In this document: positions 3,996 through 58,212 of the stretch, piece after piece
How positions within the stretch are numbered: position 1 is the stretch's first letter
Layout of the letters: every line of letters starts with the position of its first letter
Virus record (IMG/VR): IMGVR_UViG_3300005758_000016
Coordinates: 1 to 60,088 of that record
Reading direction: 5' to 3' (one strand)
Length of the DNA stretch: 60,088 bases
From: a virus
Lineage: Duplodnaviria > Caudoviricetes
Made by a program: the position numbers and the translations under genes
Notes under the pieces: model-generated
Told to the model about the DNA's origin: nothing
What the model saw: the letters and a program-made list of their open reading frames with translations, nothing else
Database searches by the model: none

Positions 3996-4007
3996 TTAAA
4001 ATTCTCC

Positions 4008-5334: not shown

Positions 5335-5337
5335 TGC

Positions 5338-5368: not shown

Positions 5369-5403
5369 ATTATTAGTACTTATTATATTGTATTGTAATA
5401 TGT

Positions 5404-10381: not shown

Positions 10382-10390
10382 AGGTATCCT

Positions 10391-13300
10391 TTATGTTATG
10401 GTTGTAACAACTATTGTGCCGAGTGCACTTACAGTTCCGTAGTTTTCATTATTGTCTACTGCGCGACATGCTACTCTATATGTTATACCTGATTCTGATA
10501 TTCTTGGAGGAGGTATATCTAATAGGTTGAATCTAGCGATGTTTGGCGCTCGCAGTACTTTAATATTATTTTCTTCATTGGGCTCTATATCCCAGAAATC
10601 TTCAATACCAGTATCTTTATATAGTCGGAATTCAAAACTCTTAAAATCTTTTGGATTTGAGAGATTAATAAACTCTTCGTCTAATATATACTCATTTGGT
10701 ATACTGGCCACGATATAAGTACCCTCTAAATCCATATTAAGCACTGGAGGCACATAGTAATTTGAAGTTTTGCCAGTATTAACAAAATAATAAACTTGCG
10801 ACCACGGACCACTAACACTACCAGTAGCATTAGTATATCTAGCACGTAGTTTATATGTAGTTAAGGAACGTAATCCACGTATATTTATACTACCTGTAAA
10901 CCGTTTGGCCTCGTATAGATTATCTAGATTTGAATTAGAAAAATCACCGTTGCCTAATACTACTTGAACTTGTATAATTTCTGCTTGCTGTGTTAGATCT
11001 GGAAAATCGGCGAAACTAACCACAGCATAGTTTTCATATATACCTGTGCTAATTTCTTCCGCAAATTCATTAGCACTAGCAACATCGGTTATTACTGGTG
11101 CTACTGTTATAGCATTTTTCAACACTTCCGGACTGCGTCCGGAGATGTTAGGGTCAAAAGAAGGTAGCTCAGCTTCACTGGTTAAATTTACGCTGTAAAT
11201 TTGTGGCGAATAATCCACTAACGTTAGTCGTGCGGTTACATTAGAGCTTGGTTCAATACCAATTACAATTAGTTCTTGTGATTCTTTAGATACTTCACCG
11301 ATCATAAATAGGTTATCGGTTTCTACACCACTACCGTCCAATGAAGTTGTAACCGTAACAGTATCGTACCAGCCAGACGTAGCTGGAGATAGTGTACGTA
11401 GCACACTAGCACCGGTATTAGTACGGATGCGAACTTGATACGTTGTCCCAGTTGTTAGATACACAGGCTCAGTTAAGTCCAGTGTAGTAGCACCAACAGA
11501 CTTTAGTCGGCCACTACCAGTTCCCCATAGTGGTACGTCATGATTAACGCGTACTAAGTCACCACGGTTACATACTAGGTACTCGAAGTCTACATTTAGT
11601 GTGTATACTTCAGGACGTAGCTTGAGTTGTGCTAGGTGCCAGCGTGCTAGCTTTTTAGCTTGTAGCGCATTAGTAACACCAGGTAAACTTAGTTCTTCAA
11701 ACACGGTAGCAGTAGACTGATTTTTACCGTAGTTATACACAATTGTTTCGTCCGCCTGATACGCACGATCACGGTTTGGGAAAGTAACGCGGAACGCGTC
11801 AGGTAAACGAGGTAACAGCTTAGTAGATTCAAATCCCCAACTATTGTGTGGAGTAAAATGCTGAGTTACTACAGTGCGAGGTCTATCAACAATCACTGTC
11901 CAACGTCCATCAACAAAAGCAGGACTTGCTAAAGCAGCTGCACAAATATCGCGTAATGTGTCCAGCACACTTTGTGTTTGCGTCACCACAGCATTATACT
12001 CGTATGAGTTTAGTCTGCAAAAGTCATGCCAGCTTTTAACAGCAGCTAGATCAACACGTTGTGAGACTTCAGCTACTGGTATAGGGTATGCGTTTGCTGG
12101 ATGTGTTAGTACGTGTAAGAATAAGCTTGCTGGATTTGAGCTAGCGCGGTAAACCCAACTATCAGTAGTGTGTTCGTAATCCCACACAATTGAGTGTACT
12201 AGTGCATTTACACCATCAATGCTACCGTTGGCTTTGTTAGTGCTTTGAATACGTATTGCTGTGCGTGCTAAATTACCTCGTGGTAGTTTGTTTAGTGGTC
12301 TTTGTATTAATTTGTCTCCAGTAACTGGATCTGTTTTAGGATCGCCGTTGGCATCTAATATATCTGGGTTACCGTACCCGGTTACACTTAATAAGCTAAC
12401 TGTGTGGTAGTTGCGTAGTGATTCTTCTGGTTCTGTTTCGTCGTCATTTGCGCGACGTACACGAACTTCATAACGACCTGGTTCCAAGTCTTTTGTTTTG
12501 TACACAAAGTTAAAGGCATCGCGACGCATGTAGTACAACCCAGGGCTACCAAACTGTATAATAGTATTTGGAGTAGCAAGATTATTTAACCCGCCATTTT
12601 CGGTATACGTAATTTTACAAGCAACACCAGCTGCACCTCCAAGAGTATTACGTGCAGTTACTTTTACTGGATAAGTACCACTTTCTAGGTATACCAAGTT
12701 GCTAACACTTTCTTTGTAGCCTGGTCGAGGCATTGCAACTGCTAAACGATTGTCTATGTAGATCGCACCTTCGTCATCTGCTGCTGCTTCAATGCGGTAA
12801 TATCCTGAATATTTAAAAGTTGCTGTATAGGTTTCAATAAACTCTGTGCTTGTACCTTTCCAAACAGCGTTGTTATTTAAAAATTGAGACCAAACCTTAT
12901 TTGTAGGAGTCGTTGTGCCAGGAATGCTACGTGCATTAAATACTATATCTTCTGCACCTGTAGCCGGCTGGTTTACTGAAAATTGTGATACGCTACCAGC
13001 ACTGATACGAACAATGGTACTAATGCTAGTAACATTACCTTCATAATCTGTTTGGGTATTATTCTGAGACGTTAGAACCAACCCACTACGGCCTACATAA
13101 TCTTGAACATGTGTAACGGTATTTACTATCTGCCCACCACCATTACATATAGTATACAGTTTTATAAATCCAGCTTGTGGTACTGTTGGTAACCTTGAGG
13201 CCGAATGCCCCTCACTAATTAAACTAGCGTATTGGCTAGTCTTAAGTTTGTTTATTAATTCTTGACTTGGCTCGCTGTCTTGTTGTTCAGTAGGAAATCC

Positions 13301-14992
13301 GTCAAACCGCTTTACTTCGCCACTAGAGTTAAGTGCGTATGTATACCACTGATACAATGTTACACCATAAGTGTAACTTCCGTCACCTGTATCTTCCGTT
13401 TTTTGATACGTAACTGGAGTTATTTCGTCAGTGTATGCACGACTAGTTCCTTGCAATCCTGGTGCCCTGTTTAAGGTATAAGACGCCAGAGGTGCCCAAG
13501 ACGGCCAAGTAGTATCACTATTCTGTTTTCGTATCTGAATTTCCACAGCTGCTGTTGCTGGGCGAATTTTACCAGCATCACCGCCACTAATTACTAGCTG
13601 GCGCATACCAACCGGAAACGTCAGTGCTACGTCAATGGCAGTGGTGTTGGTTTGCTGCAACACAACTTCTTGCCACGGATTACCGTCTTCGGTATTATTT
13701 ACGAGCTCAACACCTACCTGCTGCTGCTCTACGTCTCGCGGATACAGCCTGTTAAATGCATCTGTTTGTTCTTGTGGCTCGCTACCTGTTCCTGGTAGTG
13801 TAACTGGACGTGGTATTTCTTGTGCAAATTCCGGAGTTTGGTTAGCAGTATCTTTACGATTCCAGTCAATGGTTGGATCGCCTTGCTCGGCTTGTGTTAA
13901 TGGCAGATTGTAGTAGTTCGATAGTGGATTAATACCAACACAAATGTCCACAATCTCCAGTGGACCAAATCCCCAGATGATTAACAAGTTAAGTAAGCTG
14001 GTATCGGTTAAGGTATCCACATACGGAGTGGCTCCTAGTGTGCCGGTTACGCGTAGGCGTCCAAGCACCACCGGAATGGCACCAAAGCGGTTGGCCTGAT
14101 TACTAGCACCAGTAAACAGGTTAAGCCCACGAGCCTGTCCAGGGTCGTTTTGGCCTGGCATACGAATTGGTGCAATAGCATTAACCAGGGCCATGCCGGC
14201 CATGTTTATGGCGGCAGTTGTAGCAGCTAAAGTAGCTGTTTGTGCAAAAGTAGCTGTACCTGCTTTTACTGCAGCTGCTGCTTCCGGAGCTAGCATTGGT
14301 GCAAAATATGCAGCAGCTACTACAACAGCTAGTGTTAATAGCAGCCTTGTACCTCCACGTCCTTCTGCCACACTTTTATACGCCAGTTTTTGATCGGCCT
14401 TTAGTACTGTGGTGCTCCACTCGTCTCGTGGAATGGGCACACCATCAACTAACACAACCAGTTTACTAGCAAGGCGCTCACTTATCTGGTATTTGTTGTT
14501 AACGTAGTCGGCGAAATCTTGAACTGTGGTTCCGGCTGGCATCCAATCCAGTTCAACTTGTGTACGTAGTGGGTGCGGTAACCCGGTAGCAGGCACTGCT
14601 TGTGCTTGTGAACTATAGCGATAGAATCCGCCAAAACGACGCGACCACTGTGGCGAGTCTAGTGACTCAACCACACTATCACGACCTTCGCGTGCGTGCA
14701 GGAACCGGCGAGCACCAACGTACACACCAACGTGTGCTGGTTCGCCGTAGATGTTGAAAAGGCACACGTCACCAGGCTGTGCGTCGCTAGTCTCAGTCCA
14801 GCCACTTTTGTGCAGGTTGATAACCTCACTCAGTTGAGGGTCCCACGCACCGCTATACAGTTCACTGTAGTCTGGTAATTCAATGTCTAGCTGTTCAGCA
14901 TAAAAAAGACGTACTAATCCCCAGCAATCAACTCCACTACGAGTTCTACCGTTAGACTCATAAGGTAAGCCAATATAGTTATTGTAATCCAT
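10391..14992 (-). CDS. Tail tip/central hub protein: NlpC/P60 fused to lambda gpI/gpJ-like domains
   Basis: DCWGLV..HVG..FLH NlpC/P60 triad; IPVVLG, SSNPA and GDLVRV TipJ motifs; FN3-like C-terminal region. Confidence 0.8.
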   Translation of the reverse strand: MDYNNYIGLPYESNGRTRSGVDCWGLVRLFYAEQLDIELPDYSELYSGAWDPQLSEVINLHKSGWTETSDAQPGDVCLFNIYGEPAHVGVYVGARRFLHAREGRDSVVESLDSPQWSRRFGGFYRYSSQAQAVPATGLPHPLRTQVELDWMPAGTTVQDFADYVNNKYQISERLASKLVVLVDGVPIPRDEWSTTVLKADQKLAYKSVAEGRGGTRLLLTLAVVVAAAYFAPMLAPEAAAAVKAGTATFAQTATLAATTAAINMAGMALVNAIAPIRMPGQNDPGQARGLNLFTGASNQANRFGAIPVVLGRLRVTGTLGATPYVDTLTDTSLLNLLIIWGFGPLEIVDICVGINPLSNYYNLPLTQAEQGDPTIDWNRKDTANQTPEFAQEIPRPVTLPGTGSEPQEQTDAFNRLYPRDVEQQQVGVELVNNTEDGNPWQEVVLQQTNTTAIDVALTFPVGMRQLVISGGDAGKIRPATAAVEIQIRKQNSDTTWPSWAPLASYTLNRAPGLQGTSRAYTDEITPVTYQKTEDTGDGSYTYGVTLYQWYTYALNSSGEVKRFDGFPTEQQDSEPSQELINKLKTSQYASLISEGHSASRLPTVPQAGFIKLYTICNGGGQIVNTVTHVQDYVGRSGLVLTSQNNTQTDYEGNVTSISTIVRISAGSVSQFSVNQPATGAEDIVFNARSIPGTTTPTNKVWSQFLNNNAVWKGTSTEFIETYTATFKYSGYYRIEAAADDEGAIYIDNRLAVAMPRPGYKESVSNLVYLESGTYPVKVTARNTLGGAAGVACKITYTENGGLNNLATPNTIIQFGSPGLYYMRRDAFNFVYKTKDLEPGRYEVRVRRANDDETEPEESLRNYHTVSLLSVTGYGNPDILDANGDPKTDPVTGDKLIQRPLNKLPRGNLARTAIRIQSTNKANGSIDGVNALVHSIVWDYEHTTDSWVYRASSNPASLFLHVLTHPANAYPIPVAEVSQRVDLAAVKSWHDFCRLNSYEYNAVVTQTQSVLDTLRDICAAALASPAFVDGRWTVIVDRPRTVVTQHFTPHNSWGFESTKLLPRLPDAFRVTFPNRDRAYQADETIVYNYGKNQSTATVFEELSLPGVTNALQAKKLARWHLAQLKLRPEVYTLNVDFEYLVCNRGDLVRVNHDVPLWGTGSGRLKSVGATTLDLTEPVYLTTGTTYQVRIRTNTGASVLRTLSPATSGWYDTVTVTTSLDGSGVETDNLFMIGEVSKESQELIVIGIEPSSNVTARLTLVDYSPQIYSVNLTSEAELPSFDPNISGRSPEVLKNAITVAPVITDVASANEFAEEISTGIYENYAVVSFADFPDLTQQAEIIQVQVVLGNGDFSNSNLDNLYEAKRFTGSINIRGLRSLTTYKLRARYTNATGSVSGPWSQVYYFVNTGKTSNYYVPPVLNMDLEGTYIVASIPNEYILDEEFINLSNPKDFKSFEFRLYKDTGIEDFWDIEPNEENNIKVLRAPNIARFNLLDIPPPRISESGITYRVACRAVDNNENYGTVSALGTIVVTTIT

Positions 14993-15522
14993 TAGAATAG
15001 TCCCGGAAAGTACGTTGGTATAAAATTATAGCACGGAAAAGGCTCGCGTGCTAAATTTATCATAGTTAGGTCAAAACTAACTGTATCGCTATTGTAAGTA
15101 GCAGACGTAATATAAAAATCAGGAAAGCTTGCTTCCACCACGTCTGGCGAACCGCTTAATACTAGTTCAATTTTTACTCGTGTAGGTTTAGTTAGCTGCA
15201 CACGAACTAGTTCAATAGCTTCTCGTGTTACATACTGTAGTGTTACGCGACACTGACCTACGCCTGTATCTTGTTCTTCTGGCAGGTCAATTTGTAGTGG
15301 TAAAAACACATAATCACTGCCACGGCTAGGCACTCCGTACACTACTTCCTCGTCCGTGGTAAGCGCAGCCAATCTTTGAGTATAACTATCTGCTAGCTTA
15401 AAAATTGGCGTGTTTGGTGCATCTGGATCATATATTGTAAGCAACATTATAAGATTCTCGTCAGTTTCTGACGAGAACATAGCACGAATAGCCGAGGCAC
15501 TTAGTGTACTTAATCTGCTCAT
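14992..15522 (-). CDS. Minor tail protein (gpL/DUF1833-like)
   Basis: Position and motifs (YVFLPLQIDLP..EPFP..F.P..FPGLF). Confidence 0.7.
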   Translation of the reverse strand: MSRLSTLSASAIRAMFSSETDENLIMLLTIYDPDAPNTPIFKLADSYTQRLAALTTDEEVVYGVPSRGSDYVFLPLQIDLPEEQDTGVGQCRVTLQYVTREAIELVRVQLTKPTRVKIELVLSGSPDVVEASFPDFYITSATYNSDTVSFDLTMINLAREPFPCYNFIPTYFPGLF

Positions 15523-15891: not shown

Positions 15892-18800
15892 TTATCTCCT
15901 TGCTAGTGCTGGGCGAGAGCCGAATGTGTTCATAAATGCTTGCTGAGTTTGGGAGCCTGTGCGAGATACCTCGCCAGCAACCATTTCACCAACTACTACC
16001 TCAATACGGCGGTTGCCACGGCTGTCGGTAGTTTCGCTAGTTGTAGCTTGTGCAGTGCTGTAGTTGTTTACCACGACTTCCACATTGCCACCACCGCCGG
16101 CGCGAACGCCCAAGTTTCCATTGGCATCACGCTTTAGCGGCATAATGGCTTCTGGGCCGGCTTCGCCCATTAGGCCTGTACCTTTAGCAAACTTAAACAG
16201 TGTTGGGCTGTCTACAATTTGATTGGTAAATGCACCGCCTTTGGCAAACTTACGTACTCCGTAGTCGTAGGCTCCTCCTTTAGCAGAGTATTCACTAATA
16301 CCGGAAAAATCATAGGCTGTACCAGTAGCTCCTGTAGGACCAAGACTAGCCATACCAGGAGCAGTGATATTGCCTAACAATTTGCCTAGCCAATTAGACG
16401 CGGTACCTGACCAACCCTTACCAAATAAACCTTCAAATACATTACTTAGCTGAGCTCGAAGCGCAATACGTAATAAATCTGAAATAATGGAGTTAGCTAG
16501 ATCCTTGAAACTAGATTTACCGGTTTTTGCAAATTCTACGAAAGCATCGGTCAACCCATCAATGCTGTTTTTGAACACATTAGAGTAGTCTTTAAGTAAT
16601 TTAGTTTGCTCACTATTACTAAAACGATCTAAGTCCAGTAGTCTTAGTTTAGCATTATAGTCATCTACAGCTTGTTGGGCACGTAAATCTGAATTTCTAA
16701 TAATACCGTCTTGTTCTGTTTGCAGACTATCTGTCATAATCTGGTTATTTGCAACAAAACGTTTAGTCCAGTCGCTTAGGGCGTTGGCTCTATCACGAGA
16801 AATATCCAACTGAGCCTGTTCTAATGCAATTTGTGCACGCTGCTGTTCAAGTACGATTCGCTGTGCTTGCGCATCCCGCTCAGTTACTTGACCTAGCTCT
16901 GTACGTAACTGTAAATCACGTTCTTGATACTCTAGCGCAGCTAATTGGGAGGCTGCCGCACCTTGTTGTTCAAGCTTTTGTGTTTCCTGCAGTATTCTTT
17001 GATCTTCCAGTAGCTTATTAAAACGACTTTGTATGTCTAGTCGTGACTGTGCAACTTGCCTATTTTCTTCCGCTACTTGCTTTAAATTAGACGCAACAAT
17101 GTACTCCTGTATAGCACGATCCAGGGCAGACTGTGCCAGAGGTATTTTTTCTTTGTCTTTTGCATTTTGAGCCGCAACTAATACAGATAAGGCTGCGGTA
17201 ATGTCTTTAGACTTTTCTAGACGAGTGTTATACAGGTCTAGTTCGGCTTGTTGACGTCTATAACCTTCTAGTACCTGTTGCTGGTCTTCTAAAGACATAC
17301 CCAAGAATTCTGCGCCAGACATATATCGCTTTTCTTGTTCTTGTAACAACTGTTTCTCGTTTGACACTTGTTTTTGAATGTCCGAAATTTTTAACTTTTG
17401 CAGTCTTGCTTGAGCTTCAGTCTCTTTAACGTATCGCTCCAACCCTATAGCACTTAGTTGCGCTTGTAGATTATTTTCTAAGCGAAGTCTCTGTGCGGCG
17501 GCGGCTCGCTCTTCTGGAGTATTGTCTTTAGTCATTAAAGATCTATGGTCTCGTATAGCTCTTTCTTCTAAGTCTAGAGCTGCTAGCCTGTTTTGTGACT
17601 CTTGGAATCCACGTACATCGCGAGGATCTGTTATATTTTTAGCCTTTTCTTCTTGACGTTCGCGAGATATTCTGTCTAGTGCAATTTGATCAGTTAATCT
17701 CCTGGTTTCGACTAGTTCTGATCGTTTTAGCTCTAGCATTTGAATATCTAAACGTAACTGCTCTTTAATAGTGGCTTCAGATTCGGGTAAAATACTAACA
17801 ATACTCTTAGATGCTTCTAATGAAGCTTTTGTTAGAATTCGTGAAGATTCTAACTGAATTAGCTTGAATCCCCTATCTATTGTCTTATTTAAGGCGTCAC
17901 CAAGATTTACTCGTATATACTCTATCTGCTTACGGATTGACGCTTCTTTCATGCGGTCATTCGCGTCAACTGCTGCTTCTAATTGAATATTTAATTCATT
18001 AACTTGTGTTGCCGCTGAAATCAATGCTTGTTGGGTTTTTAAGTCAAAAGCACTTATTTTACTAGTGTCCTCTAGTATAGTATTTAGTACGGCTGCCATG
18101 TCTTTGGCATTAGTAAATGCGCTAGCTATATTAGTAGTTTGAGCCACCAAGGATGCCCCAAAATCTCCAATTACAGATTTTTGCATTAAACTATTTTCAA
18201 GAGCTTGAAACTTATTCTGAATGTCAGCAAAACCTTCACCAACATTTGACAACCTTCTCACACTATTTTGACTAGCTTGATCTGTTGATTTGAACAAGTT
18301 TAGTATAGCGTTTTGAAAGCTTACTATTTCTGCCTCTGATTTAAATCCTAAATAGGTCGTTATAGATTCTGCATCTGTTCCGCCGCCGCCAACTAACCTC
18401 TTTATCTCACTAGCTAACGCTTTACGCTCGCCAGGATCTTTTATTAGCTTAAGCTGCTGAGTTATATTTTCGGCTAGACTTTTTGCTTGTTTGGACGCTC
18501 TGTCTGCCCCAAAAATACCTTTTGCGGCATTCACAATATTGTCAAAAGTACTAGCCGCACGGGAAGCTTCTTCGTAGCTGTCCACTAAACTTCGAAGATT
18601 TGTATTTAAATCCTGCGTGGCATTAGCTTGTGCAAGTATACTGTCTATTGTTACAGTATCTTTGTACTTTTTAAGAGTTTGTTCTGCAGCCTTAACACTA
18701 TCTTTATTGGCGTCAATGGCTGAATTAAACTTAGCCATTTCTTCCGCATTTTTTCCAAACAACATTTCTAATATGGGAAAGGCTATTAAAAAAGCTGTTA

Positions 18801-20463
18801 GCGGTCCAGATATTAAACTCATCATACCGCTAGCTAAAGTAGATATTCCTCGTGCTGCTATTAAGCTTCCTGCCTGTATATTAGTATACCATTTAGTAGT
18901 GGTACCTAACTTGTCTAGTCTTCCTTGTACGTCTTTTAGTCTTTGTACTGCCGGTCCAAACCCTTGAGTATCGTAAACTCTATTAACACTGCCAATTGTT
19001 CTTGTAGATATAGAACTACGTCTAGCCGCAGTAGCTTCTCTTTGTAGTTCCGCAGCTCGCGTAAATGTTCCTGGAGCAGCTTCAGCTAGTCGCTCTTGTT
19101 CTTGGCGTATTCTTATAAAGTTTTGTTCTTCTGTTTGATAATTCCGTATGCTTGTGGCTAAATGTCTATATGTAGCACTTACTTTTGTGTTCGCCTTACC
19201 AAGTCTGTCCAAATTAGCAAGCTCTTTTTCAGTCCAATCATTGGCCTGCTCTTTAGTACGTATTAGATTTTTTACTTCTTTATTAACATATCTATTAGCT
19301 AAAGCTGCTTCTTCTGCATCTTCCCATGCTTGTTGGGCAACAGTAGCCGGCTTTTCTGCCTGAGTAAGGAATGTGGTTTTATTTGCTTCACGAAACTTTT
19401 TAAGTGCTGCGTCCGCTTCTTTGGCCTTGTCGCGCGCTTTAACAGCAGCCATTTCAGTTGTTTCGTTTAATTTTTGACGATACTCTAATAGTGCAGGTAA
19501 GGCCTGATTTACAATTCGTACGCCTACTAAACCAATTGCTGCAGCCATCCCTGTAGGGCTTGTTCCTAATAGCTCTACTAGTGGCTTTACTGCCACATTA
19601 ACAATATTAAGTATCTCGAAACCAACGTCTTTTAATGTAGCTAGAAACTTATCATACGGATTAGTGTCTAGCTTAATTTCGCTAAATTTCTTTTCGCCTT
19701 CCTCAAGCACAGCATTAGCAAAAGCCTGACGTCGTTCAAAATCTGTTAAACTATTAGCTGTTTTACCTATGCTTTTTGCATAGTCTTCTGTAGCTTTTCC
19801 TACTTTTGTAAAAATACCAAGTTCGTCTAATAATTCTGGCTCTAGTTTTGTAATACCGCGAGTAAGACGACTTACAGCGTCACTCATACCAACACCCAAT
19901 GCCTGCGACGCTTGACGAGCAACATTACCAAGTCTAATAAACTGTTCGGAGCTTAATCCACTACTAGTAGCTTTTGCTGTGGCTTCAATAGCTTCACGAG
20001 TACTAATTGCGAATCCGGTGGCTTCCTGAAACTGCTTTGACAATCCTGCTAGGTTTTTACCTCCGGCTGCTCCGATTTGGTCCAAACCTCTAATCATATT
20101 GGAGGTATTTACTGCTTCACTTAGGGCAGTAAACGCTGCGGTTGCTGCAAACAAATTAGCAGCATATGTAGCATACAGACGCACTAATCCACCAAGACCC
20201 TGTGACTGATTAGCAAAGTCTCGACCGGCTGCCCCAGTTGCTCCCATACTGCCGCGAGCGCGGCTATAGTCTTCTGCTTCTGCTCCGGCACCAGCCTTTC
20301 GATAGCTGGCCGCTACAGCCTTACTGCCACTACGAGTACCTGTTGCAAGTTGCTGTGTTTTTTCAAGCTCAGCGTTAAGCTTTTGAGCTTGCTTTGTGTT
20401 CTTTTCGATTGTCTTGTTTTTGTCCTCTAGACGAAACTCGACTTCTGCAACTGTTTTTTGCAT
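15892..20463 (-). CDS. Tape measure protein
   Basis: 1523 aa, helical; KLEPELLDELGI (T5 pb2-like) and GEAGPEAIMPL motifs. Confidence 0.9.
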   Translation of the reverse strand: MQKTVAEVEFRLEDKNKTIEKNTKQAQKLNAELEKTQQLATGTRSGSKAVAASYRKAGAGAEAEDYSRARGSMGATGAAGRDFANQSQGLGGLVRLYATYAANLFAATAAFTALSEAVNTSNMIRGLDQIGAAGGKNLAGLSKQFQEATGFAISTREAIEATAKATSSGLSSEQFIRLGNVARQASQALGVGMSDAVSRLTRGITKLEPELLDELGIFTKVGKATEDYAKSIGKTANSLTDFERRQAFANAVLEEGEKKFSEIKLDTNPYDKFLATLKDVGFEILNIVNVAVKPLVELLGTSPTGMAAAIGLVGVRIVNQALPALLEYRQKLNETTEMAAVKARDKAKEADAALKKFREANKTTFLTQAEKPATVAQQAWEDAEEAALANRYVNKEVKNLIRTKEQANDWTEKELANLDRLGKANTKVSATYRHLATSIRNYQTEEQNFIRIRQEQERLAEAAPGTFTRAAELQREATAARRSSISTRTIGSVNRVYDTQGFGPAVQRLKDVQGRLDKLGTTTKWYTNIQAGSLIAARGISTLASGMMSLISGPLTAFLIAFPILEMLFGKNAEEMAKFNSAIDANKDSVKAAEQTLKKYKDTVTIDSILAQANATQDLNTNLRSLVDSYEEASRAASTFDNIVNAAKGIFGADRASKQAKSLAENITQQLKLIKDPGERKALASEIKRLVGGGGTDAESITTYLGFKSEAEIVSFQNAILNLFKSTDQASQNSVRRLSNVGEGFADIQNKFQALENSLMQKSVIGDFGASLVAQTTNIASAFTNAKDMAAVLNTILEDTSKISAFDLKTQQALISAATQVNELNIQLEAAVDANDRMKEASIRKQIEYIRVNLGDALNKTIDRGFKLIQLESSRILTKASLEASKSIVSILPESEATIKEQLRLDIQMLELKRSELVETRRLTDQIALDRISRERQEEKAKNITDPRDVRGFQESQNRLAALDLEERAIRDHRSLMTKDNTPEERAAAAQRLRLENNLQAQLSAIGLERYVKETEAQARLQKLKISDIQKQVSNEKQLLQEQEKRYMSGAEFLGMSLEDQQQVLEGYRRQQAELDLYNTRLEKSKDITAALSVLVAAQNAKDKEKIPLAQSALDRAIQEYIVASNLKQVAEENRQVAQSRLDIQSRFNKLLEDQRILQETQKLEQQGAAASQLAALEYQERDLQLRTELGQVTERDAQAQRIVLEQQRAQIALEQAQLDISRDRANALSDWTKRFVANNQIMTDSLQTEQDGIIRNSDLRAQQAVDDYNAKLRLLDLDRFSNSEQTKLLKDYSNVFKNSIDGLTDAFVEFAKTGKSSFKDLANSIISDLLRIALRAQLSNVFEGLFGKGWSGTASNWLGKLLGNITAPGMASLGPTGATGTAYDFSGISEYSAKGGAYDYGVRKFAKGGAFTNQIVDSPTLFKFAKGTGLMGEAGPEAIMPLKRDANGNLGVRAGGGGNVEVVVNNYSTAQATTSETTDSRGNRRIEVVVGEMVAGEVSRTGSQTQQAFMNTFGSRPALARR

Positions 20464-36224: not shown

Positions 36225-36343
36225 TAATACTTTTGTTTTCAGGTGGAATTGAAAACAAAAGTATTACAGGCGGTGCGCCAAAATTATATCATAATTTTGC
36301 GGCCCCGGTCAATAGGTGTTTCCCCCTATGTTGTATTTGTACA
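36225..36343. repeat. Pre-early intergenic module copy
   Basis: TAATACTTTTGTTTTCA-N8-TGAAAACAAAAGTATTA plus leftward TTGACC..TATAAT. Confidence 0.9.
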
Positions 36344-36438
36344 AATTGCAAAAAAGTCTTGTTTGTGGGGCTGGTTTGCGTTATAATAATCCCATACCGC
36401 AGCGAAGGGCGCAGCGGAATAACCCGAAAGGTAACACT

Positions 36439-36771
36439 ATGGAAAAGACTAGCAAAACTGTCAACTATTCCCCTGAAATGACTGCAAAAATGGTTGCCGA
36501 TTATGCGGCTGGCGTGACTGTGGAAGCAATCGCTAGCGAACTGGGCAAATCGGTTCGCTCGATTGTTGCTAAACTGTCGCGCGAGGGTGTTTACCAGAAA
36601 AAGACCTACAAAACTAAAACTGGCGAGCCAGTCGTGAAAAAAGACGCTCACGCGGACGCTATCGGCGCGATTTTGCGGTTGCCTGAAAATGATATTGAAT
36701 CACTGACAAAAGCGAACAAATCGGCACTGAAGGCGATTTTCGAAGCCCTTGCAAATAGCAAGCCACTGTAA
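36439..36771 (+). CDS. T5 A2-like DNA-binding protein, paralog 2
   Basis: Highly similar to 32223-32546. Confidence 0.7.
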   Translation: MEKTSKTVNYSPEMTAKMVADYAAGVTVEAIASELGKSVRSIVAKLSREGVYQKKTYKTKTGEPVVKKDAHADAIGAILRLPENDIESLTKANKSALKAIFEALANSKPL

Positions 36772-37720: not shown

Positions 37721-38032
37721 ATGATGACTGACGCAACTAAAACCAACTACACCGAAGCACAAACCCTGGAACTGGTGACTCGCTACCAAGCGGGTGAAAC
37801 TGTAGAAGCCTTGGCCGAGGCTGTGGGCAAGAGTGTACGCAGCGTGGTAGCCAAGCTCAGCCGCGAAGGTGTGTATCAAGCCAAGACCAAGAGCAAGGGC
37901 ACTGCTCGCGTTACCAAGGCTGCACTGACCGGTTTGCTGGAAAGCAAGCTGGGCATGGACCCCGGCAGCCTGGAAAGCCTGCAAAAGGCTTCACACGACC
38001 AACTGGAAGCACTGGTTGACCGGGTAGTTTAA
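37721..38032 (+). CDS. T5 A2-like DNA-binding protein, paralog 3
   Basis: NYT..GKSVRSVVAKLSREGVY..ESL.KA. Confidence 0.7.
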   Translation: MMTDATKTNYTEAQTLELVTRYQAGETVEALAEAVGKSVRSVVAKLSREGVYQAKTKSKGTARVTKAALTGLLESKLGMDPGSLESLQKASHDQLEALVDRVV

Positions 38033-38230
38033 GTTTAGGGTCAGAAAATCCATACTTGATCTTCTGACCCAAACCCGGTATAATAATATCTTAGACAGTT
38101 GAGAAGGGCCTTGTTAAATGGCAAGCAATTGCCGGCCTGTTCAGCTCAGCAGCCCACCTCGCTAATCAGTGATTACTCGACGTCGTATCTGTGTGGCTAG
38201 TCTGTTTGCGGCAACTGTCTAATTTTCGAC

Positions 38231-38259
38231 TTGAACTTATACTTAAACTACTGTATAAT
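38231..38259 (+). promoter_or_regulatory. Sigma70 promoter of RNA operon
   Basis: TTGAAC-17 nt-TATAAT; a second one, TTGATC-17 nt-TATAAT, at 38056-38084. Confidence 0.7.
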
Positions 38260-38358
38260 TTATATATATATATTGAAGACAGGGTGACAGCGGGCAGCGT
38301 CAAGCTGATACGTCTTAATTGTGGAGAAAATGCACTCCGAGCCACAGCCCCGAGCACA

Positions 38359-38541
38359 CTAAAGCGAAAGCTATCAGCTACTTGCTGGTAGTGCTAAGCA
38401 AAAACAGAAGTTACCGTTGTGCCAACCCCTATGCGATCTTAGTTCAGACAGTGCAATCGCCGCACTAGCGTTAGGATGTACCGGCAGTGTGGGCCAGTTC
38501 GCAGCTCAGGGTTTTGCTTGCAGTGATAGCTTTCGCTTTAG
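38359..38541 (+). ncRNA. Stem-closed structured RNA
   Basis: Perfect 18-bp inverted repeat CTAAAGCGAAAGCTATCA/TGATAGCTTTCGCTTTAG with nested AAGCAAAA/TTTTGCTT; no credible ORF. Confidence 0.6.
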
Positions 38542-38618
38542 GGTGTTATGAGATCATGTTTGATGAATAACAACTTAATGGCCACCGAATACTTCTCTAG
38601 TGGCCGCCCAACCAATAT

Positions 38619-38694
38619 GCTTCCATCGTCTATCGGCTAGGACACCGCCCTTTCACGGCGGGAAGGAGGGGTTCGATTCCCCCTGGAAGTACCA
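38619..38694 (+). tRNA. tRNA-Glu(UUC)
   Basis: Cloverleaf, loop CTTTCAC, encoded CCA. Confidence 0.92.
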
Positions 38695-38696
38695 AA

Positions 38697-38799
38697 ATCC
38701 ACTGATGAGCACCCTGCAATGGGGCGAAACTCTCAGGAGCGCAGTGCAAGTGTACGGACCCTAGACCCAGTCCTGCTTGCAACGCCTGAGGGTCTGGAT
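38697..38799 (+). ncRNA. Type I hammerhead ribozyme
   Basis: Stem I ATCCA/TGGAT, core CTGATGA, stem II, GAAA, stem III CTCTCAGG/CCTGAGGG, GUC cleavage triplet at 38792-38794. Confidence 0.85.
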
Positions 38800-39310
38800 G
38801 AAAACCCAGCGAAACCAGGACGCCTGTCCCTCCCGAAGCCTAGTAGCCATGCGCGAACACCGGACGGAGCTATGGCTGAAAGTGAGTAACTGGAAATGAG
38901 TAACTCCAAGGCCCGCACGGTCTATATCCAGTGCCGCCTTATCCTGTACCGGCGTTAAATGGTCTTGATGTATAGTGTGGCTACTAATCGGCCCGAGATG
39001 GTGAGGCTCCTGAAACTCGTTAAAACAGAGTTCAATAAAGTATGGTTGTGCGTAGCCAACCCGACCCTAAACCGGCGTGGTCGTTAAAGTGCGGAACCCC
39101 TCAAAGCGTAAAGAGGCAAAAAATGTACAGTGCAGGCGTTGATAGCGTAGCACAACAAGTCTCCCCTGCTGCAGATACCCAGGTTATTGTCCACAAAACC
39201 TGTTAATGTGCTGCGGTTTAGGGTCAGTGCAGTAAAACGGTGTTGGTACAGCCGGTGTAAGTCGCTGTTTGAGCAAACTAAAAACTTAAGGCTGTTGCAA
39301 CAGCCGGTGT
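38795..39310 (+). ncRNA. Candidate large structured ncRNA
   Basis: ORF-poor; long-range stems TAGTAGCCATGC/GTGTGGCTACTA and GACCCTAAACCG/CGGTTTAGGGTC; ends at a terminator. Confidence 0.45.
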
Positions 39311-39312
39311 TC

Positions 39313-39353
39313 AAAGCCCACCACAGGTCGCTCCTGTGGTGGGCTTTGTTTTG
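39313..39353 (+). terminator. Strong intrinsic terminator
   Basis: AAAGCCCACCACAGG/CCTGTGGTGGGCTTT followed by GTTTT. Confidence 0.8.
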
Positions 39354-39540
39354 CCCACACCAAGCTCACCACCAAAATTTCACACCCGGTCTGCGCCAAT
39401 TATACAGTGGTAAACCTGCAGGGTCAAGTGCATTTTCTGCATTTTGCTCGCCTGACCCTAAATTGGGGTAGTCTCCCGCAGGCACAAAAAAGCCCCCATT
39501 ATCGTCATGATAGTGGGGGCTTACTTGTTTTAAGTGGAGA

Positions 39541-39858
39541 TTACTCCGCATGGTGCGGTTTAGGGTCGAGTTTGGTCTCAATAAGTAGGAGCACGGTTTT
39601 GTTGACCTTTTCTAGACTCTCCAGTCGTTCACTATCCACCTGGAGCAGAGTGGCAAGGCGTTCGATGATCTCGCTTTTCTTTTGTGGCAGCTCACCACGC
39701 TTGTTGGTGTACACTTTTCGCTGGTAGACACCCAAACTTGAGAGCTTAGCAATTATGCTGCGACTTGGCACCTGCAGGGTTGTGGCCAGTTCCTCCACGG
39801 TCAGACCCCGCTTGTAGTCCTCGACCAGTTTATTTGTGATTTCGTTTGTGTATTTCAT
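39541..39858 (-). CDS. T5 A2-like DNA-binding protein, paralog 4 (divergent)
   Basis: YT.E..RSIIAKLSSLGVYQRK.Y..K.GE..K..ESLEKVNK. Confidence 0.65.
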   Translation of the reverse strand: MKYTNEITNKLVEDYKRGLTVEELATTLQVPSRSIIAKLSSLGVYQRKVYTNKRGELPQKKSEIIERLATLLQVDSERLESLEKVNKTVLLLIETKLDPKPHHAE

Positions 39859-45400: not shown

Positions 45401-45552
45401 GTTTTCTTACTAAGCACCCATGTATTTGTAGTATTTTCGTGTTGTGACCACTCAATCGTATCGCCCACACTCCAGCCTACCTGGTCTAATAATTCCGGCG
45501 GTAGTTCTATGTAGAATTCGCCGCTTTCGTCTTGTTGTACTTTGATTACCAT
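45397..45552 (-). CDS. AbrB/MazE-like small DNA-binding protein
   Basis: IELP.ELL..VGW..GD.IEW. Confidence 0.6.
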   Translation of the reverse strand: MVIKVQQDESGEFYIELPPELLDQVGWSVGDTIEWSQHENTTNTWVLSKKT

Positions 45553-46466
45553 TGTGCTTCTCCTGGAATAAGTTTGCGATGCTGAATCCAGCCACGCAGG
45601 TTGCCACTCCACAGGTCGCCATTAGCACTTACGTGAGTAACTCCGTATTCCCACGTTTCTGGTTCGTAGTTGCAATAGGTACGTAAGTCCATTGGTGTAG
45701 CCTGGTGCTCAACTGGAGAGGCGTGACACGGCTGTGAATTGATTAACTGGTCAAAGATTTTTTGAGCCTTCTCGATACTATCATCGTTCTTACGATACGA
45801 CACTTGAGCACAACAGCTAGCGCTGATAATACGTGCCGTTTCTGCACTAATATACTGATCGTTGCTATCAACGTAATGCAGCACGCCAGTATGAGAATCG
45901 CGATAGGTAGTGACATAGGGAACATGCCATTCTCCAGGTTGTAAGTGTTGCGGTGTGGAGGCATTGTAGGCATCCCACATAGCTACCGCAAGTTGGTGAA
46001 TTTCAGGCTGTGCATCAGCATGTGCACGCAGCCAAAAGAAGTTACGCCACTCAGTACCACTAATAACCGTTTTCATTGTCATCCACGGTTCAGTAATCCT
46101 GTTAGCAATTTGTTTGTGCAAGCCTACACGGTCTGCAAGTGCCCATGCCCAGTGAATAGCATCGTCCATTGCTCGACGCCAGATAAACTTGGCATCAGCC
46201 AGGTCGTTATCTGTTAGTTCCGCCTTGGCTTGCATTCCAGGCTGATTTTTACCCCAGTGAACTGGTGTAGCTGGGTGGTTGCGAATATGTTCGTGCATAG
46301 TCTTGACTGGAATAGCACGACTACTGGCACTATTCTTAGACAGCATACGATGAGTATTCAACTCCGCCAGGATAAATCGTGGATACTCAATCTCCATGGT
46401 GGTCATTCGAGTACCTTGGGGACTAACTGAATCAGCTAGGATTTTCGCAGAGATCTGTGATTGCAT
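45546..46466 (-). CDS. thyX: Flavin-dependent thymidylate synthase
   Basis: AELNTHR..S.NSASSRAIP, HKQ.ANR..EP, LR.H.DAQPEI. Confidence 0.85.
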   Translation of the reverse strand: MQSQISAKILADSVSPQGTRMTTMEIEYPRFILAELNTHRMLSKNSASSRAIPVKTMHEHIRNHPATPVHWGKNQPGMQAKAELTDNDLADAKFIWRRAMDDAIHWAWALADRVGLHKQIANRITEPWMTMKTVISGTEWRNFFWLRAHADAQPEIHQLAVAMWDAYNASTPQHLQPGEWHVPYVTTYRDSHTGVLHYVDSNDQYISAETARIISASCCAQVSYRKNDDSIEKAQKIFDQLINSQPCHASPVEHQATPMDLRTYCNYEPETWEYGVTHVSANGDLWSGNLRGWIQHRKLIPGEAQW

Positions 46467-50698: not shown

Positions 50699-50785
50699 CC
50701 CATATATTAGCACTATGACTAATAAGAAGGAAACCAACACAGTATTGTGTGGCTGGGCCTCACCTGCATAGTGCTAATATATGGG
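50699..50785 (+). ncRNA. Stem-closed inter-tRNA cassette
   Basis: Perfect 19-bp CCCATATATTAGCACTATG/CATAGTGCTAATATATGGG. Confidence 0.6.
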
Positions 50786-50967
50786 CCGGTAGCTTTAAGT
50801 GGTAAAAGCACTAATCCGGAATACCACATCGTACAGACAATACTGTGACTAGTTTAACCTCTACCGCAATTGGGGTCTCGGCATTGACGTCTGGGCTGAA
50901 TTCGAATATATGCTTACGCGATTGGTATAATTTATGGTTGCAGGTTCGAATCCTGCCTGGCCCACCA
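50783..50967 (+). ncRNA. tRNA-like RNA with ~110-nt insertion replacing the anticodon arm
   Basis: Acceptor GGGCCGG/CTGGCCC-A-CCA, D arm GCTT/AAGC, T arm GCAGG-TTCGAAT-CCTGC; 185 nt long. Confidence 0.8.
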
Positions 50968-54842: not shown

Positions 54843-55064
54843 ATGCCCTGTTATAAATGCAGCAACGGTAAGTACCGTTACGGTAATCGTGGTCGTTGTC
54901 AGTTTGACACACTCCAAGCCTGCCGAGCAGCAGAAGCTGCCATCCACGCACGTAAACCCAAAAAAGACATGACAGACAGCAACAGCACTACTAAAGGTGA
55001 CTGTGGTAGCTGTGGTGGTTGCCAACATTGCGACTGCCGTGATGACTGTAAGAACAAAAGCTGA
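54843..55064 (+). CDS. Small Cys-rich basic protein
   Basis: MP..KC..GKY..G..G motif; metallothionein-like Cys tail. Confidence 0.55.
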   Translation: MPCYKCSNGKYRYGNRGRCQFDTLQACRAAEAAIHARKPKKDMTDSNSTTKGDCGSCGGCQHCDCRDDCKNKS

Positions 55065-55134
55065 CGTAGCTCAAAGGCAGAGCAGGGTCTTGATAAGGCC
55101 CAGGTTGAGATCTCGGAATTCTCCGTCAGTACCA
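55060..55134 (+). tRNA. tRNA-Ile(GAU), atypical T loop
   Basis: Loop TTGATAA; T loop CTCGGAA. Confidence 0.8.
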
Positions 55135-55675: not shown

Positions 55676-55746
55676 CGCGGTGAGTCAGGGTAGAGGCAAG
55701 TCTCATAAGCTCCGCCTAGTTGGTTCGAGTCCAACCACCGCAACCA
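55676..55746 (+). tRNA. tRNA-fMet(CAU)-like, degenerate
   Basis: C1:A72 mismatch, loop CTCATAA, good T arm; reduced D arm and weak anticodon stem. Confidence 0.65.
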
Positions 55747-55747
55747 C

Positions 55748-55822
55748 GGTTTTGTAGCACAGTGGTAGTGCAGCGTCTTCATACGGCGTTGGTCGTTAGT
55801 TCGAATCTAGCCAAAACCACCA
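55748..55822 (+). tRNA. tRNA-Met/Ile2(CAU)
   Basis: Cloverleaf, loop TTCATAC. Confidence 0.85.
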
Positions 55823-56210: not shown

Positions 56211-56915
56211 ATGAATATTGGAATTTATGCTCTATATTGGTGGGAGCAAGACATAGTGTATGTCGGAAAAAGCAAAGATTTAAATCTTCGTAAGTACGAA
56301 CATTTAAGACTAATGCAAACTGGAAAGCATACAAAAAAGGTACAAAGTGCTTTTGACTTGTACGGGTTACCAGATTTCATCACAGTACAGCTTTGTGATA
56401 TTGCACAATTAGATGAATTAGAAGTATTTTGGATACAAGAACTAGATGCTTTGGGTTTATCTGGATTAAATAAATGTCCAGGAGGGCAAGATGTTGGTAG
56501 AGATACAACGCACTCAGCCTCCAAGTTTTCTCACCACCAAATACTACAGGTAGTAGACTTATTAATACAAGGTGTACAATACAAAGATATTGTAGATATT
56601 ACCGGAGTATCTAAACCAGTAGTAAGTACCATACTAAATCAATCAAAACACACTTGGATACCAGCAGAGCTAAAAACTGCACTAGATATAGAAAAGTCTA
56701 GAAGAATGTTGTTACCTGCACTGGATAGTTCTACTAAAAACTACTTTATAAAGAGTCCTAATGGTCGTATCTATAAAGTAGATAATATATCCGAATTTGC
56801 CAGAAATCATAACCTTTTGGGCACAAAACTAAACGAAGTTTTGAGAGAAAAACGTAACCAACATTGTGGCTGGACACGGCCTACTGAAAAGGATTTGCTA
56901 AATGTCGTCAATTAA
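56211..56915 (+). CDS. GIY-YIG endonuclease
   Basis: GIY..YVGKS..R..H..E..N; C-terminal DNA-binding-like region. Confidence 0.8.
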   Translation: MNIGIYALYWWEQDIVYVGKSKDLNLRKYEHLRLMQTGKHTKKVQSAFDLYGLPDFITVQLCDIAQLDELEVFWIQELDALGLSGLNKCPGGQDVGRDTTHSASKFSHHQILQVVDLLIQGVQYKDIVDITGVSKPVVSTILNQSKHTWIPAELKTALDIEKSRRMLLPALDSSTKNYFIKSPNGRIYKVDNISEFARNHNLLGTKLNEVLREKRNQHCGWTRPTEKDLLNVVN

Positions 56916-58212
56916 TCGTAAAAATAAATTTGCTGCCGCTAATAGCGTGGGAACACAAGTACCAAGTATTAGTGCAGAAAATCAATTGCGTAGGGTGACG
57001 TTAGCATCAATGTTATACGAAAACCAGTTCTACCTAGACGGTAAGTCCCACGCAGAATTGGTGCGAGATCTTGTAGCCCGAGTTAGCCCAGAAAAGGTTG
57101 CCGACTTGGCTGAAGTGGCGCGAAGCAAATTTAAGCTGCGTCATATTCCTCTGCTGCTTGCCCGTGAACTGGCTCGCAGTGGTCGCCTACAAGCACAAAC
57201 GCTGACTAATATCATTCAGCGTCCGGACGAAATGTCCGAGTTCCTGTCAATCTACTGGCAGGAAGGCAAAACTGCTGTGTCTAACCAAATCAAAAAAGGT
57301 TTGGCGGCTTGTTTCCACAAGTTTAACGAGTACCAGCTTGCCAAGTGGAACAAGAACCGTGCCGCGATTAAGCTACGCGACGTGATGTTCTTGACCCACC
57401 CTAAACCGCAGAGTGCTCAACAAGCTGAACTTTTCAAGCGAATTGCTAGTGATACGCTTGAAACCCCAGATACCTGGGAGGTGCAACTGAGCGCAGGCGC
57501 AGACAAGTGTGAAACATTCACACGACTTATCCAAGAAAACAAACTTGGTGCTCTAGCTTTCTTGCGTAACTTGCGTAACATGACACAGAGTGGCGTAGCG
57601 GAGTCCCTTATCCGTAGTTACGGCTCCAACGTAGATGTGTCACGAGTACTGCCGTTTCGCTTTATTGCGGCGGCACGCATTGTTCCTCAATACGAGGATA
57701 TGTTGGAACAAATGATGTTCCGAGCACTTGCCACAGTACCTAAACTGCCTGGCAAGACTGTGTTAGTTATCGACGTGAGTGGCTCCATGTTTGGTACTAA
57801 CATCAGTGCAAAAAGTGACCTAGACCGCTTTGACGCGGCCGCAGCACTGGCAATTCTTTGCCGTGAAATCTGCGAGACTGTAGAAATCTACTCGTTTAGC
57901 TACGATGCCGTACGAGTCGCACCTCGTCGTGGATTTGCGCTGGTAGAAGCAATTAGTGCTTCGCAGCCTCACGGAGGCACACAGCTAGGCACAGCAATGC
58001 GTACAATTGACTCACAAACTGCTTACGATCGTGTAATCGTATTTACCGACGAGCAAAGCTATGACCGCCCACAATCGCCGCGCGGCAAGGGTTATCTGGT
58101 GAACGTGGCCAGCTACCAACACGGCGTGAATCATAGTGCTTGGCATGAGATCAATGGCTTTAGTGAAGCCATCATTGACTACATTCAAGCGTTTGAGGAG
58201 TCAAACCAGTAA
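56902..58212 (+). CDS. Ro60/Rsr TROVE-vWA RNA-binding protein
   Basis: E..FY, RPDE, KF.EYQLAK, TWE..LS, LRNLRN, LPFRF, DVSGSM (MIDAS), TDEQ. Confidence 0.92.
   Translation: MSSINRKNKFAAANSVGTQVPSISAENQLRRVTLASMLYENQFYLDGKSHAELVRDLVARVSPEKVADLAEVARSKFKLRHIPLLLARELARSGRLQAQTLTNIIQRPDEMSEFLSIYWQEGKTAVSNQIKKGLAACFHKFNEYQLAKWNKNRAAIKLRDVMFLTHPKPQSAQQAELFKRIASDTLETPDTWEVQLSAGADKCETFTRLIQENKLGALAFLRNLRNMTQSGVAESLIRSYGSNVDVSRVLPFRFIAAARIVPQYEDMLEQMMFRALATVPKLPGKTVLVIDVSGSMFGTNISAKSDLDRFDAAAALAILCREICETVEIYSFSYDAVRVAPRRGFALVEAISASQPHGGTQLGTAMRTIDSQTAYDRVIVFTDEQSYDRPQSPRGKGYLVNVASYQHGVNHSAWHEINGFSEAIIDYIQAFEESNQ

Follow-up and report, generated by a model that had tools for sequence, protein, structure and literature searches.

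A candidate RNA-only transcription unit linking a variant hammerhead motif to a large conserved RNA in a lineage of uncultured phages

The noncoding locus and its conservation

The virus record IMGVR_UViG_3300005758_000016 (Caudoviricetes) comprises 60,088 bases, all of which were analyzed here (the window), and has an estimated completeness of 57%. Its portal protein shares 39-41% identity with its counterparts in T5-like phages of Vibrio, Escherichia and Salmonella, and we therefore read the source phage as an uncultured, distant T5-like siphovirus. The window encodes at least 15 tRNA genes according to ARAGORN. The locus studied here is a coding-free gap of about 1.5 kb (38033-39540) between a plus strand gene for a protein of 103 amino acids (aa) and a minus strand gene for a 105-aa protein, both of which match PHROG families annotated as DNA-binding. 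On the plus strand of this gap lie a promoter (P2), a leader, a tRNA-Glu gene, a type I hammerhead ribozyme motif and a large structured RNA, here named RNA C, that ends in an intrinsic terminator (Table 1). Apart from the leader, these elements had been listed in an original prediction made by reading the sequence, and every element of that list was recovered at or near the position it had been given.

The same prediction held that about 1.1 kb of this region lacks a credible coding sequence, which was borne out. The open reading frames (ORFs) in the gap are short and unsupported (42-94 aa), the longest being a 94-aa frame with a TTG start and a 76-aa frame on the minus strand. A Pfam search of six gap ORFs gave no match, and when 24 members of the family were compared no ORF kept its position, strand or length.

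A search of IMG/VR with the portal protein returned 251 relatives, of which 80 were kept; 20 long records were then searched for the locus. It was present in 13 of the 20, including all six records that are at least 90% complete, and each of the 14 loci fetched from related records carries the hammerhead. A pattern for the hammerhead core matched 52 viral loci and a pattern for the RNA C core matched 16 viral and six metagenome loci, giving 33 distinct units after de-duplication. At all loci matched by the second pattern (16/16 viral and 6/6 metagenome loci) the RNA C core was found only 160-290 nucleotides (nt) downstream of this type of hammerhead. Look-alike sequences were also detected in about 20 sequencing runs from 10 studies, which contained about one fifth of the sampled words. 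Contigs from such runs span 38078-38806, 38885-38967 and 39060-39275 at a likeness of at least 80%. Stretches outside contig cover (38815-38875, 38998-39058 and, in run X12, 39303 onward) as well as a contig joint from 38963 to 39128, which has a short side, were left unused as evidence.

Searches in other directions returned little. In a named-phage collection only the tRNA matched (26 records, none covering more than 5% of the query), a scan with one 16-mer of RNA C gave three chance matches and a combined pattern of tRNA-Glu plus hammerhead had no match in metagenome contigs. Among bacterial and archaeal genomes a single contig was recovered; it is 1,036 nt long, belongs to a metagenome bin and carries no clue to the host. 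Synteny based on a flanking 265-aa protein led to phage L005 alone (46% identity), which is without tRNA, hammerhead and RNA C and shares the DNA motif described below. A motif-pair pattern matched only L019, an unrelated phage with tandem repeats. As a side observation, the 100-kb record G002 carries two slightly different hammerhead-RNA C copies (L119 and L113), one per end, which may represent terminal repeats or an assembly that mixed strains.

The hammerhead is well defined. Its core pattern occurs once in the window compared with 0.02 expected occurrences, and the minimum free energy (MFE) fold of 38692-38805 is a type I three-way junction. As the GUC triplet occupies 38792-38794, the predicted cut falls before 38795, the position at which the large RNA had originally been proposed to start. 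None of the 29 aligned units deviates in the catalytic core (CUGANGA, GAAA and an NUH triplet with an A15.1-U16.1 pair), and GUC is the cleavage triplet throughout the listed units apart from L135 (GUA). Among 28 distinct sequences, 85.5% of the alignment cells were paired compared with 30-44% when partners were slid; 20 of the 29 pairs change on both sides and none of 500 shuffles reached the observed values. Stem II is 99.3% paired with three of five pairs changing on both sides, so that CACA/UGUG, CUGA/UCAG, CCAG/CUGG and other versions alternate. Stem III is 91.3% paired with five of nine pairs changing on both sides, and its insert consists of two helices that covary as well (five of five pairs each). 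Pairing in stem I amounts to 70%, with three conserved pairs (CCU/AGG) and two covarying positions; the window, L134 and L188 share a compensated variant, UCCA/UGGA, in which a U-A pair is changed to A-U. Contigs of relatives in the sequencing runs lack exactly the bulged A38711. The invariant core and the compensatory changes in stems II, III and I indicate, at the level of sequence comparison, that the hammerhead fold is under selection.

Two further possibilities for the ribozyme were considered and rejected. The Rfam model Hammerhead_3 suggested a different register involving the tRNA acceptor strand, with a cut after the discriminator base. Stem I is absent from this register, and by our own reading tRNA-bearing relatives do not keep it. 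A second cut at the 3' invariant UUUAGGGUC, which would give rise to a ligatable or circular RNA, was also evaluated. In all seven members whose site 1 has drifted from the motif by covariation, site 2 retains no more than 4-5 contiguous pairs with the ribozyme arm; the ribozyme arms therefore do not track the 3' copy of the motif and we propose no second cleavage. Phage RtcB was found in none of 20 records.

RNA C is conserved as well. An alignment of 17 full-length members displays invariant blocks between variable insertions, and among 29 units with a recognizable terminator the length ranges from 312 to 958 nt (median 620). Mean column identity in the core is 77% (15 sequences), and hairpin Pa covaries (UA/CG/AU and CG/GC). 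The 5' variable domain that precedes the core is common to L103, L106 and L151 and missing in L107, L110, L114, L144, L158 and L188; contigs of runs X1 and X12 have 22 nt in place of 38807-38894. Relatives carry one to three exact copies of the GACCCUAAACCG module plus diverged ones, UUUAGGGUC is invariant in 17 of 17 sequences, and a short helix that follows site 2 (39225-39229/39263-39267) varies among members. Conservation extends to the terminator, strong as previously claimed, and across the 17 sequences its stem contains pairs in which both partners change.

Unaided, RNAalifold recovered the hairpins Pa, Pb and Pc and the terminator with compensatory changes. For 25 curated pairs in seven helices, 91.9% of cells were paired in the 17 sequences compared with 26-38% for slid partners. 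Both sides change in 13 of the 25 pairs, and the covariation score was 0.363 compared with 0.157, a value that was not attained in any of 500 shuffles. In these helices, about 24 G-U cells correspond to A-C mismatches on the opposite strand, which favors the plus strand. Covariation, on which the original prediction had made its case depend, was thus found both in the hammerhead (28 sequences) and in curated helices of RNA C (17 sequences).

That prediction had also pictured RNA C as two domains closed by 12-bp stems, a layout which did not turn out to be a conserved architecture. The sequence of the first stem is present (38841-38852/38975-38986, with two G-U pairs), but it has no family support. 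We therefore rejected it as a native structure, since its 5' arm falls within the optional domain, which many members lack, and its 3' arm corresponds to the family hairpin Pc. The second stem (39063-39074/39214-39225) pairs at 12 of 12 positions, but clear covariation is missing (p = 0.05). It joins a GACCCUAAAC module to the invariant GUUUAGGGUC, both of which are copies of a genome-wide motif.

Table 1. Features of the noncoding locus in the window
Feature	Position	Strand	Description
Hairpin from lineage motif	38033..38073	+	GTTTAGGGTCAG ... CTGACCCAAAC; inverted repeat; position kept in relatives
Promoter P1	38056..38084	+	TTGATC-17-TATAAT; 10/12 positions; kept in relatives
RNA A	38091..38229	+	~135 nt; 11-bp terminal stem 38091-38101/38212-38222, then short U-run
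Promoter P2	38231..38259	+	TTGAAC-17-TATAAT; 10/12 positions; kept in relatives
Conserved 5' leader	38266..38354	+	Blocks GGGUGACAGCGG ... CGUCUUAAUUGUGG ... CCGAGCCACAGCCC; alignment of 19 units
Long hairpin extension of leader	38355..38545	+	Optional, hypervariable; arms 38355-38376/38524-38545
Spacer hairpin	38580..38605	+	GGCCAC ... GUGGCC; conserved linker before tRNA slot
tRNA-Glu(UUC)	38619..38694	+	Encoded CCA; ARAGORN; Rfam 48 bits (gathering score 29)
Type I hammerhead	38697..38799	+	Core pattern, MFE fold, family alignment
Stem I	38697-38701/38795-38799	+	AUCCA/UGGAU
Core CUGAUGA	38702-38708	+	
Stem II	38709-38714/38721-38725	+	Bulged A38711
GAAA	38726-38729	+	
Stem III	38729-38737/38785-38793	+	Closes ~47-nt insert
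C17	38794	+	GUC triplet 38792-38794
Predicted self-cleavage site	38794..38795	+	GUC/U; hammerhead geometry; would be RNA C 5' end
RNA C	38795..39353	+	559 nt; cleavage site to end of terminator U-tract
Optional 5' variable domain of RNA C	38807..38894	+	Local hairpin 38845-38850/38872-38877
RNA C core	38891..38969	+	AAUGAGUA, hairpin Pb, UAUAUCC, hairpin Pa, UUAAAUGGUCUU; most conserved part
Hairpin Pa	38935-38938/38951-38954	+	Conserved loop UUAUCCUGUACC
GACCCUAAACCG module	39063..39074	+	Reverse complement of lineage motif
Site 2	39214..39225	+	Invariant CGGUUUAGGGUC; 12/12 complementary to 39063-39074
Intrinsic terminator	39312..39353	+	Perfect 16-bp hairpin 39312-39348, then U-rich tail TTTGTTTTG
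Convergent promoter P3	39399..39427	-	TTGACC-17-TATAAT; 11/12 positions; faces RNA C terminator hairpin
Exact copies of motif TTTAGGGTC	1504, 31640, 31676, 38034, 39063(-), 39217, 39454(-), 39559, 40195(-), 40735(-), 40964		

Leader, tRNA slot and neighboring elements

Upstream of the hammerhead, constant and optional parts alternate. The start of the leader at 38266 was set from the -10 element of P2. Its long hairpin extension has 22-nt arms that are 95% complementary and a fold z-score of -3.1 (2 of 200 shuffles fold as well). It is missing in L110, L114, L144 and L152, and in other relatives the stem found at this position differs in sequence. In contigs from runs X1 and X5, 22 nt stand in place of the hairpin interior 38365-38535. 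An 18-bp stem-closed RNA at 38359-38541 had been predicted here. The stem exists, but it belongs to this hypervariable extension of the leader rather than to a separate conserved RNA. The stem of the spacer hairpin varies among relatives and yet remains complementary, as judged by eye and unscored.

The tRNA forms a cloverleaf with a UUC anticodon and scores above the Rfam threshold. The predicted linkage between tRNA and large RNA holds for the window, but it is not general, as the slot is filled in only nine of 33 units (eight Glu, one Tyr) and 24 units are without a tRNA.

A comparable order of elements exists elsewhere. Thirteen other viral contigs (L006-L018) carry a type I hammerhead no more than a few nt after a tRNA-CCA, in most cases as part of a tRNA array, and in several of them the next tRNA is separated by a gap of 100-2,000 nt. 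L008 resembles the window further in having tRNA-Glu(UUC) and a long stem III, and L006, L015 and L016 have a common conserved element directly after the ribozyme. These arrays differ from the window in that they have no sequence in common with its leader or RNA C and mostly continue with further tRNAs instead of RNA C. Our literature searches gave no paper that describes such an order of tRNA and hammerhead in phage tRNA arrays.

A promoter scan returned five sigma-70-like sites compared with 1.3 ± 1.2 in shuffles. In addition to P2, two of them precede small candidate RNAs. The lineage-motif hairpin comes after the stop codon of the 103-aa gene, and the end of its motif lies 13 nt before the -35 element of P1. 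P1 is predicted to drive RNA A, a separate small RNA upstream of the region covered by the original prediction. RNA A is present in most relatives and missing in L188. By eye, covariation is visible in its closing stem (CAGUUG/CAACUG for the window, CAGUCG/CGACUG for relatives); its fold z-score is only -1.24. On the minus strand, the strong promoter P3 is predicted to give rise to an RNA of about 80-110 nt that extends to about 39310; the 3' ends of this RNA and of RNA C would be complementary to each other. Sequence similar to the P3 region is visible downstream of the terminator in relatives.

The motif that recurs in these elements, TTTAGGGTC, is strongly over-represented in the window, with 37 matches at up to one mismatch compared with 12.9 ± 3.6 expected. 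The exact copies number 11, and a longer consensus reads roughly cGGTTTAGGGTCag. Copies are concentrated around 31.6 kb and between 38 and 41 kb, are located 13-26 nt upstream of the -35 elements of P1 and P3, and occur in the distant phages L005 and L019, where they bracket tandem repeats. The over-representation, the position relative to promoters and the recurrence in L005 and L019 make a role at the DNA level seem likely, and the motif is probably the binding site of a regulator. The corresponding RNA element UUAGGGUC serves as the cleavage-site strand of the hammerhead in most relatives and is invariant near the 3' end of RNA C.

Three small paralogous proteins (36316-36771 and 37721-38032 on the plus strand, 39541-39858 on the minus strand) match the same DNA-binding PHROG families, and an IF2_N-type domain is present in one of them. 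Their genes flank the RNA locus on both sides, and the proteins are candidate binders of the motif or of the RNAs. Farther away, the window contains three ORFs of about 1,520-1,540 aa in the structural region (5753-10381, 10391-14992 and 15892-20463, minus strand). The N-terminal domain of a dATP/dGTP diphosphohydrolase (PF18909; 48583-49107, plus strand) and a thymidylate synthase (45546-46466, minus strand) hint at a modified nucleotide metabolism. Two Rfam tRNA matches on the plus strand were not listed by ARAGORN: one of 72 nt at 55060-55131 (45.4 bits) and one of 182 nt at 50783-50964 (35.8 bits). The longer match may represent a tRNA interrupted by a long insertion or an intron.

Relation to known systems

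Rfam 15 contains no match for the large RNA at E ≤ 10 (37900-39700) or at E ≤ 1 (the whole window and the loci of 11 relatives). The comparison extended to GOLLD (presumably accession RF01998) and ROOL (which we take to be RF03087), the two tRNA-linked phage RNAs to which RNA C could not be matched by eye at the outset. Covariance-model searches of the window and of the 11 relatives' loci bore this out, and RNA C is therefore a member of neither. The lack of an Rfam match, the presence of the locus in 13 of 20 records and the covariation support the earlier suggestion of a possible new class of large noncoding RNA. Rfam incorporates many motifs from surveys that provide supplementary motif lists, and families described after its release are not in it. 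The literature yielded no description of RNA C, with the supplementary motif lists of PMC5737381 and PMC3088659 lying outside the text covered.

GOLLD is described as a large structured RNA of phages and prophages that often lies beside tRNAs or contains them, that is expressed during infection and whose function is not known (parts consulted of PMC12286853). ROOL is a phage or prophage RNA of about 580-660 nt, often located near tRNA islands and very abundant in one host, again with a function that is not known (parts consulted of PMC5737381 and PMC12286853). RNA C resembles GOLLD in its size class (312-958 nt), its phage origin and its tRNA-adjacent context. It differs in the upstream hammerhead with its predicted 5' end, the GACCCUAAR modules and the T5-like lineage. 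Its sequence blocks are unrelated to those of ROOL, for which a linkage to a ribozyme does not appear in the parts consulted of the two descriptions (PMC5737381; PMC12286853). In context RNA C has some likeness to both families, within limits: it is phage-encoded and 312-958 nt long, a tRNA is adjacent in nine of 33 units only, and high expression is hinted at by summed contig depth only.

Hammerheads inside long phage and prophage transcripts are thought to process these into shorter units, according to the parts consulted of an earlier survey (Perreault et al., 2011; PMC3088659). In L145, and also in L184, numerous hammerheads agree in core and loop type with the one described here, and each precedes the start codon of a gene by a short distance. 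This matches a layout with multiple hammerheads that has been described in prophages. It also fits the published view of transcript processing (PMC3088659, as far as consulted). The ribozyme in the window shares the core and loop II type with hammerheads located before protein genes in other viral contigs (L145 being an example). In contrast to them, it precedes a large conserved noncoding RNA and not a gene, and its family is characterized by a covarying stem III insert of about 45 nt and a conserved stem I of 3 bp, a combination missed by the Rfam models.

The phage also encodes an ortholog of Ro60 with TROVE and vWA domains (56902-58212, plus strand), 17 kb from the locus. Y RNAs are stem-closed RNAs that can carry tRNA-like modules. 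The presence of the ortholog is where the likeness to a Ro60 system with Y RNA or YrlA ends: the only match to the YrlA model in the window (55691-55801; 25 bits compared with a threshold of 69) overlaps a tRNA-Met 17 kb away, and there was none in the loci of 11 relatives. Ro60 is present in four of six near-complete relatives, and all six carry RNA C. A link between Ro60 and a Y RNA at this locus was rejected on these grounds. The 'Drum' RNA is not associated with a ribozyme and was dismissed as well. In protein-sponge RNAs such as CsrB and RsmZ, a short motif is repeated in hairpins within one abundant RNA. RNA C shows a short motif several times in hairpin contexts, a likeness by analogy only. 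Its motif is a different one that is also a DNA motif at promoters, and no partner protein is known.

Proposed maturation of RNA C and alternative readings

We consider it likely that the locus is a conserved RNA-only transcription unit in which a transcript from P2 is cut by the hammerhead between 38794 and 38795, releasing RNA C as a stable and abundant main product that belongs to an undescribed family. We infer the following course of cleavage, end formation and function. P2 would give rise to a noncoding transcript of about 1.1 kb that comprises the leader, an optional tRNA, the type I hammerhead, RNA C and the terminator. The hammerhead would fold during transcription and cut at the predicted site. 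Hammerhead products bear a 5'-hydroxyl and a 2',3'-cyclic phosphate (parts consulted of PMC8782182). The cut would thus separate a piece of leader, tRNA and ribozyme with a 2',3'-cyclic phosphate end from an RNA C that starts with a 5'-hydroxyl, and the latter would accumulate as a stable, abundant noncoding RNA. As a working guess, RNA C may act as a multivalent scaffold or decoy whose repeated GACCCUAAR hairpin modules would bind protein or pair with RNAs that bear the complementary UUAGGGUC.

Sequencing depth was inspected for signs of expression. In the metatranscriptome run X12, summed contig depth was about 25 for flanking genes, about 170 for the leader and 1,280-15,030 for segments of RNA C, and run X19 pointed in the same direction. 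In the DNA run X1 the RNA C segments (35-209) did not exceed the flanks. Run X5, guessed to be an RNA library, displayed no enrichment of RNA C and is probably DNA. We take contig depth as a weak hint at the abundance of RNA C.

Several observations weigh against the proposed release of a stable, structured RNA C. The depths given above sum all look-alike contigs and are a poor measure of expression. One contig from RNA run X12 spans the cleavage site, so that uncleaved RNA, or DNA in the library, exists. With no more than 3 bp of stem I conserved, efficient cleavage is not guaranteed. The hammerhead stays below the Rfam threshold: the best match in the window, Hammerhead_3 in another register, reaches 23.5 bits compared with 48.5, and the loci of 11 relatives gave no hammerhead match at E ≤ 1. 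This is likely because of the stem III insert of about 45 nt. As the scored helices of RNA C were picked by eye on a rough MAFFT alignment, their statistical support is inflated. Folded alone, RNA C has a z-score of -1.66 compared with -2.66 for the opposite strand. Given this marginal value, thermodynamics does not decide the matter and it is the comparative evidence that carries the case beyond chance. Support for the long-range helix between module and site 2 is marginal in terms of flank covariation (4.21 compared with 3.67 bp, p = 0.05), and the same is true of the helix adjoining site 2 in an alignment-free test (5.11 compared with 4.81, p = 0.048). Finally, module and motif elements also occur at the DNA level, outside the RNA and in phages without RNA C, and the conservation of the motif inside RNA C may thus not be a feature of the RNA.

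These weaknesses leave room for other readings. A small share of our confidence goes to a more elaborate version of the proposed maturation, which we consider unlikely as a whole. Here RNA C would be a new large 'ornate' phage RNA with hammerhead-dependent maturation whose GACCCUAAR modules pair with UUAGGGUC, either linking processing to the control of early transcripts or self-assembling like GOLLD and ROOL; the UUAGGGUC element would, as part of this same improbable combination, mark early promoters across the genome. A slightly smaller share goes to the idea that the hammerhead is a relic or a poor cleaver and that the whole 1.1-kb transcript, or fragments of it made by host RNases, is the functional RNA. 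The short conserved stem I, the Rfam scores below threshold and the contig across the cleavage site would fit such a relic. All 29 aligned units, however, agree in the catalytic core, many compensatory changes maintain stems II and III, and stem I covaries in the window, L134 and L188. Only selection on the ribozyme fold would be expected to leave such a pattern. We regard it as quite improbable that the locus is first of all a DNA-level regulatory hub with operator or activator sites or origin-like repeats, in which the conserved blocks would be protein-binding DNA. The over-represented and clustered motif, its placement upstream of the -35 elements of P1 and P3, its presence in L005 and L019 and the flanking proteins with matches to DNA-binding-type PHROG families speak for such a hub. 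Yet hairpins unrelated to the motif covary and do so with G-U pairs included, the unit is bordered on a single strand by promoter, ribozyme and terminator, the RNA C core accompanies the hammerhead at 22 of 22 loci and contigs from RNA runs cover the unit. The hub and the RNA can both be real.

We give marginally less credit still to a hidden small protein gene (or several) or a divergent member of an already described RNA family. ORFs of 42-94 aa do exist, and Rfam is without the families described after its release. Against this, none of the ORFs is conserved in the 24 members compared and six of them lack a Pfam match, Rfam 15 had no match for the window or the loci of 11 relatives, and no description was found in the literature. 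Least probable of all, in our estimate, is a cassette for tRNA expression or processing in which the hammerhead trims the 3' trailer of the tRNA and the downstream 560 nt are a by-product. The tRNA-Glu of the window does end 7 nt before the ribozyme core, and the 13 other viral contigs described above have a tRNA directly before a type I hammerhead. However, 24 of 33 units keep hammerhead and RNA C without any tRNA, RNA C is conserved in sequence and structure, and the predicted cut lies about 100 nt beyond the CCA, so that it does not make the 3' end of the tRNA.

From the comparison of related loci we conclude that RNA C probably represents a new family of large phage noncoding RNA whose 5' end would be set by a variant hammerhead, its cleavage being predicted. 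Phages have few large structured noncoding RNAs; these, GOLLD and ROOL among them, are abundant and without known function. If our reading is true, RNA C would stand beside them as a third, unrelated family and would broaden the set available for comparison. It would bring a handle on its own production, namely a ribozyme predicted to define its 5' end, together with features that can be tested: repeated modules, an optional tRNA slot and small proteins of a nucleic-acid-binding type on both flanks. Since hammerheads with a long stem III and a 3-bp stem I are missed by the Rfam models, ribozyme-defined RNAs may be under-counted in viral metagenomes.

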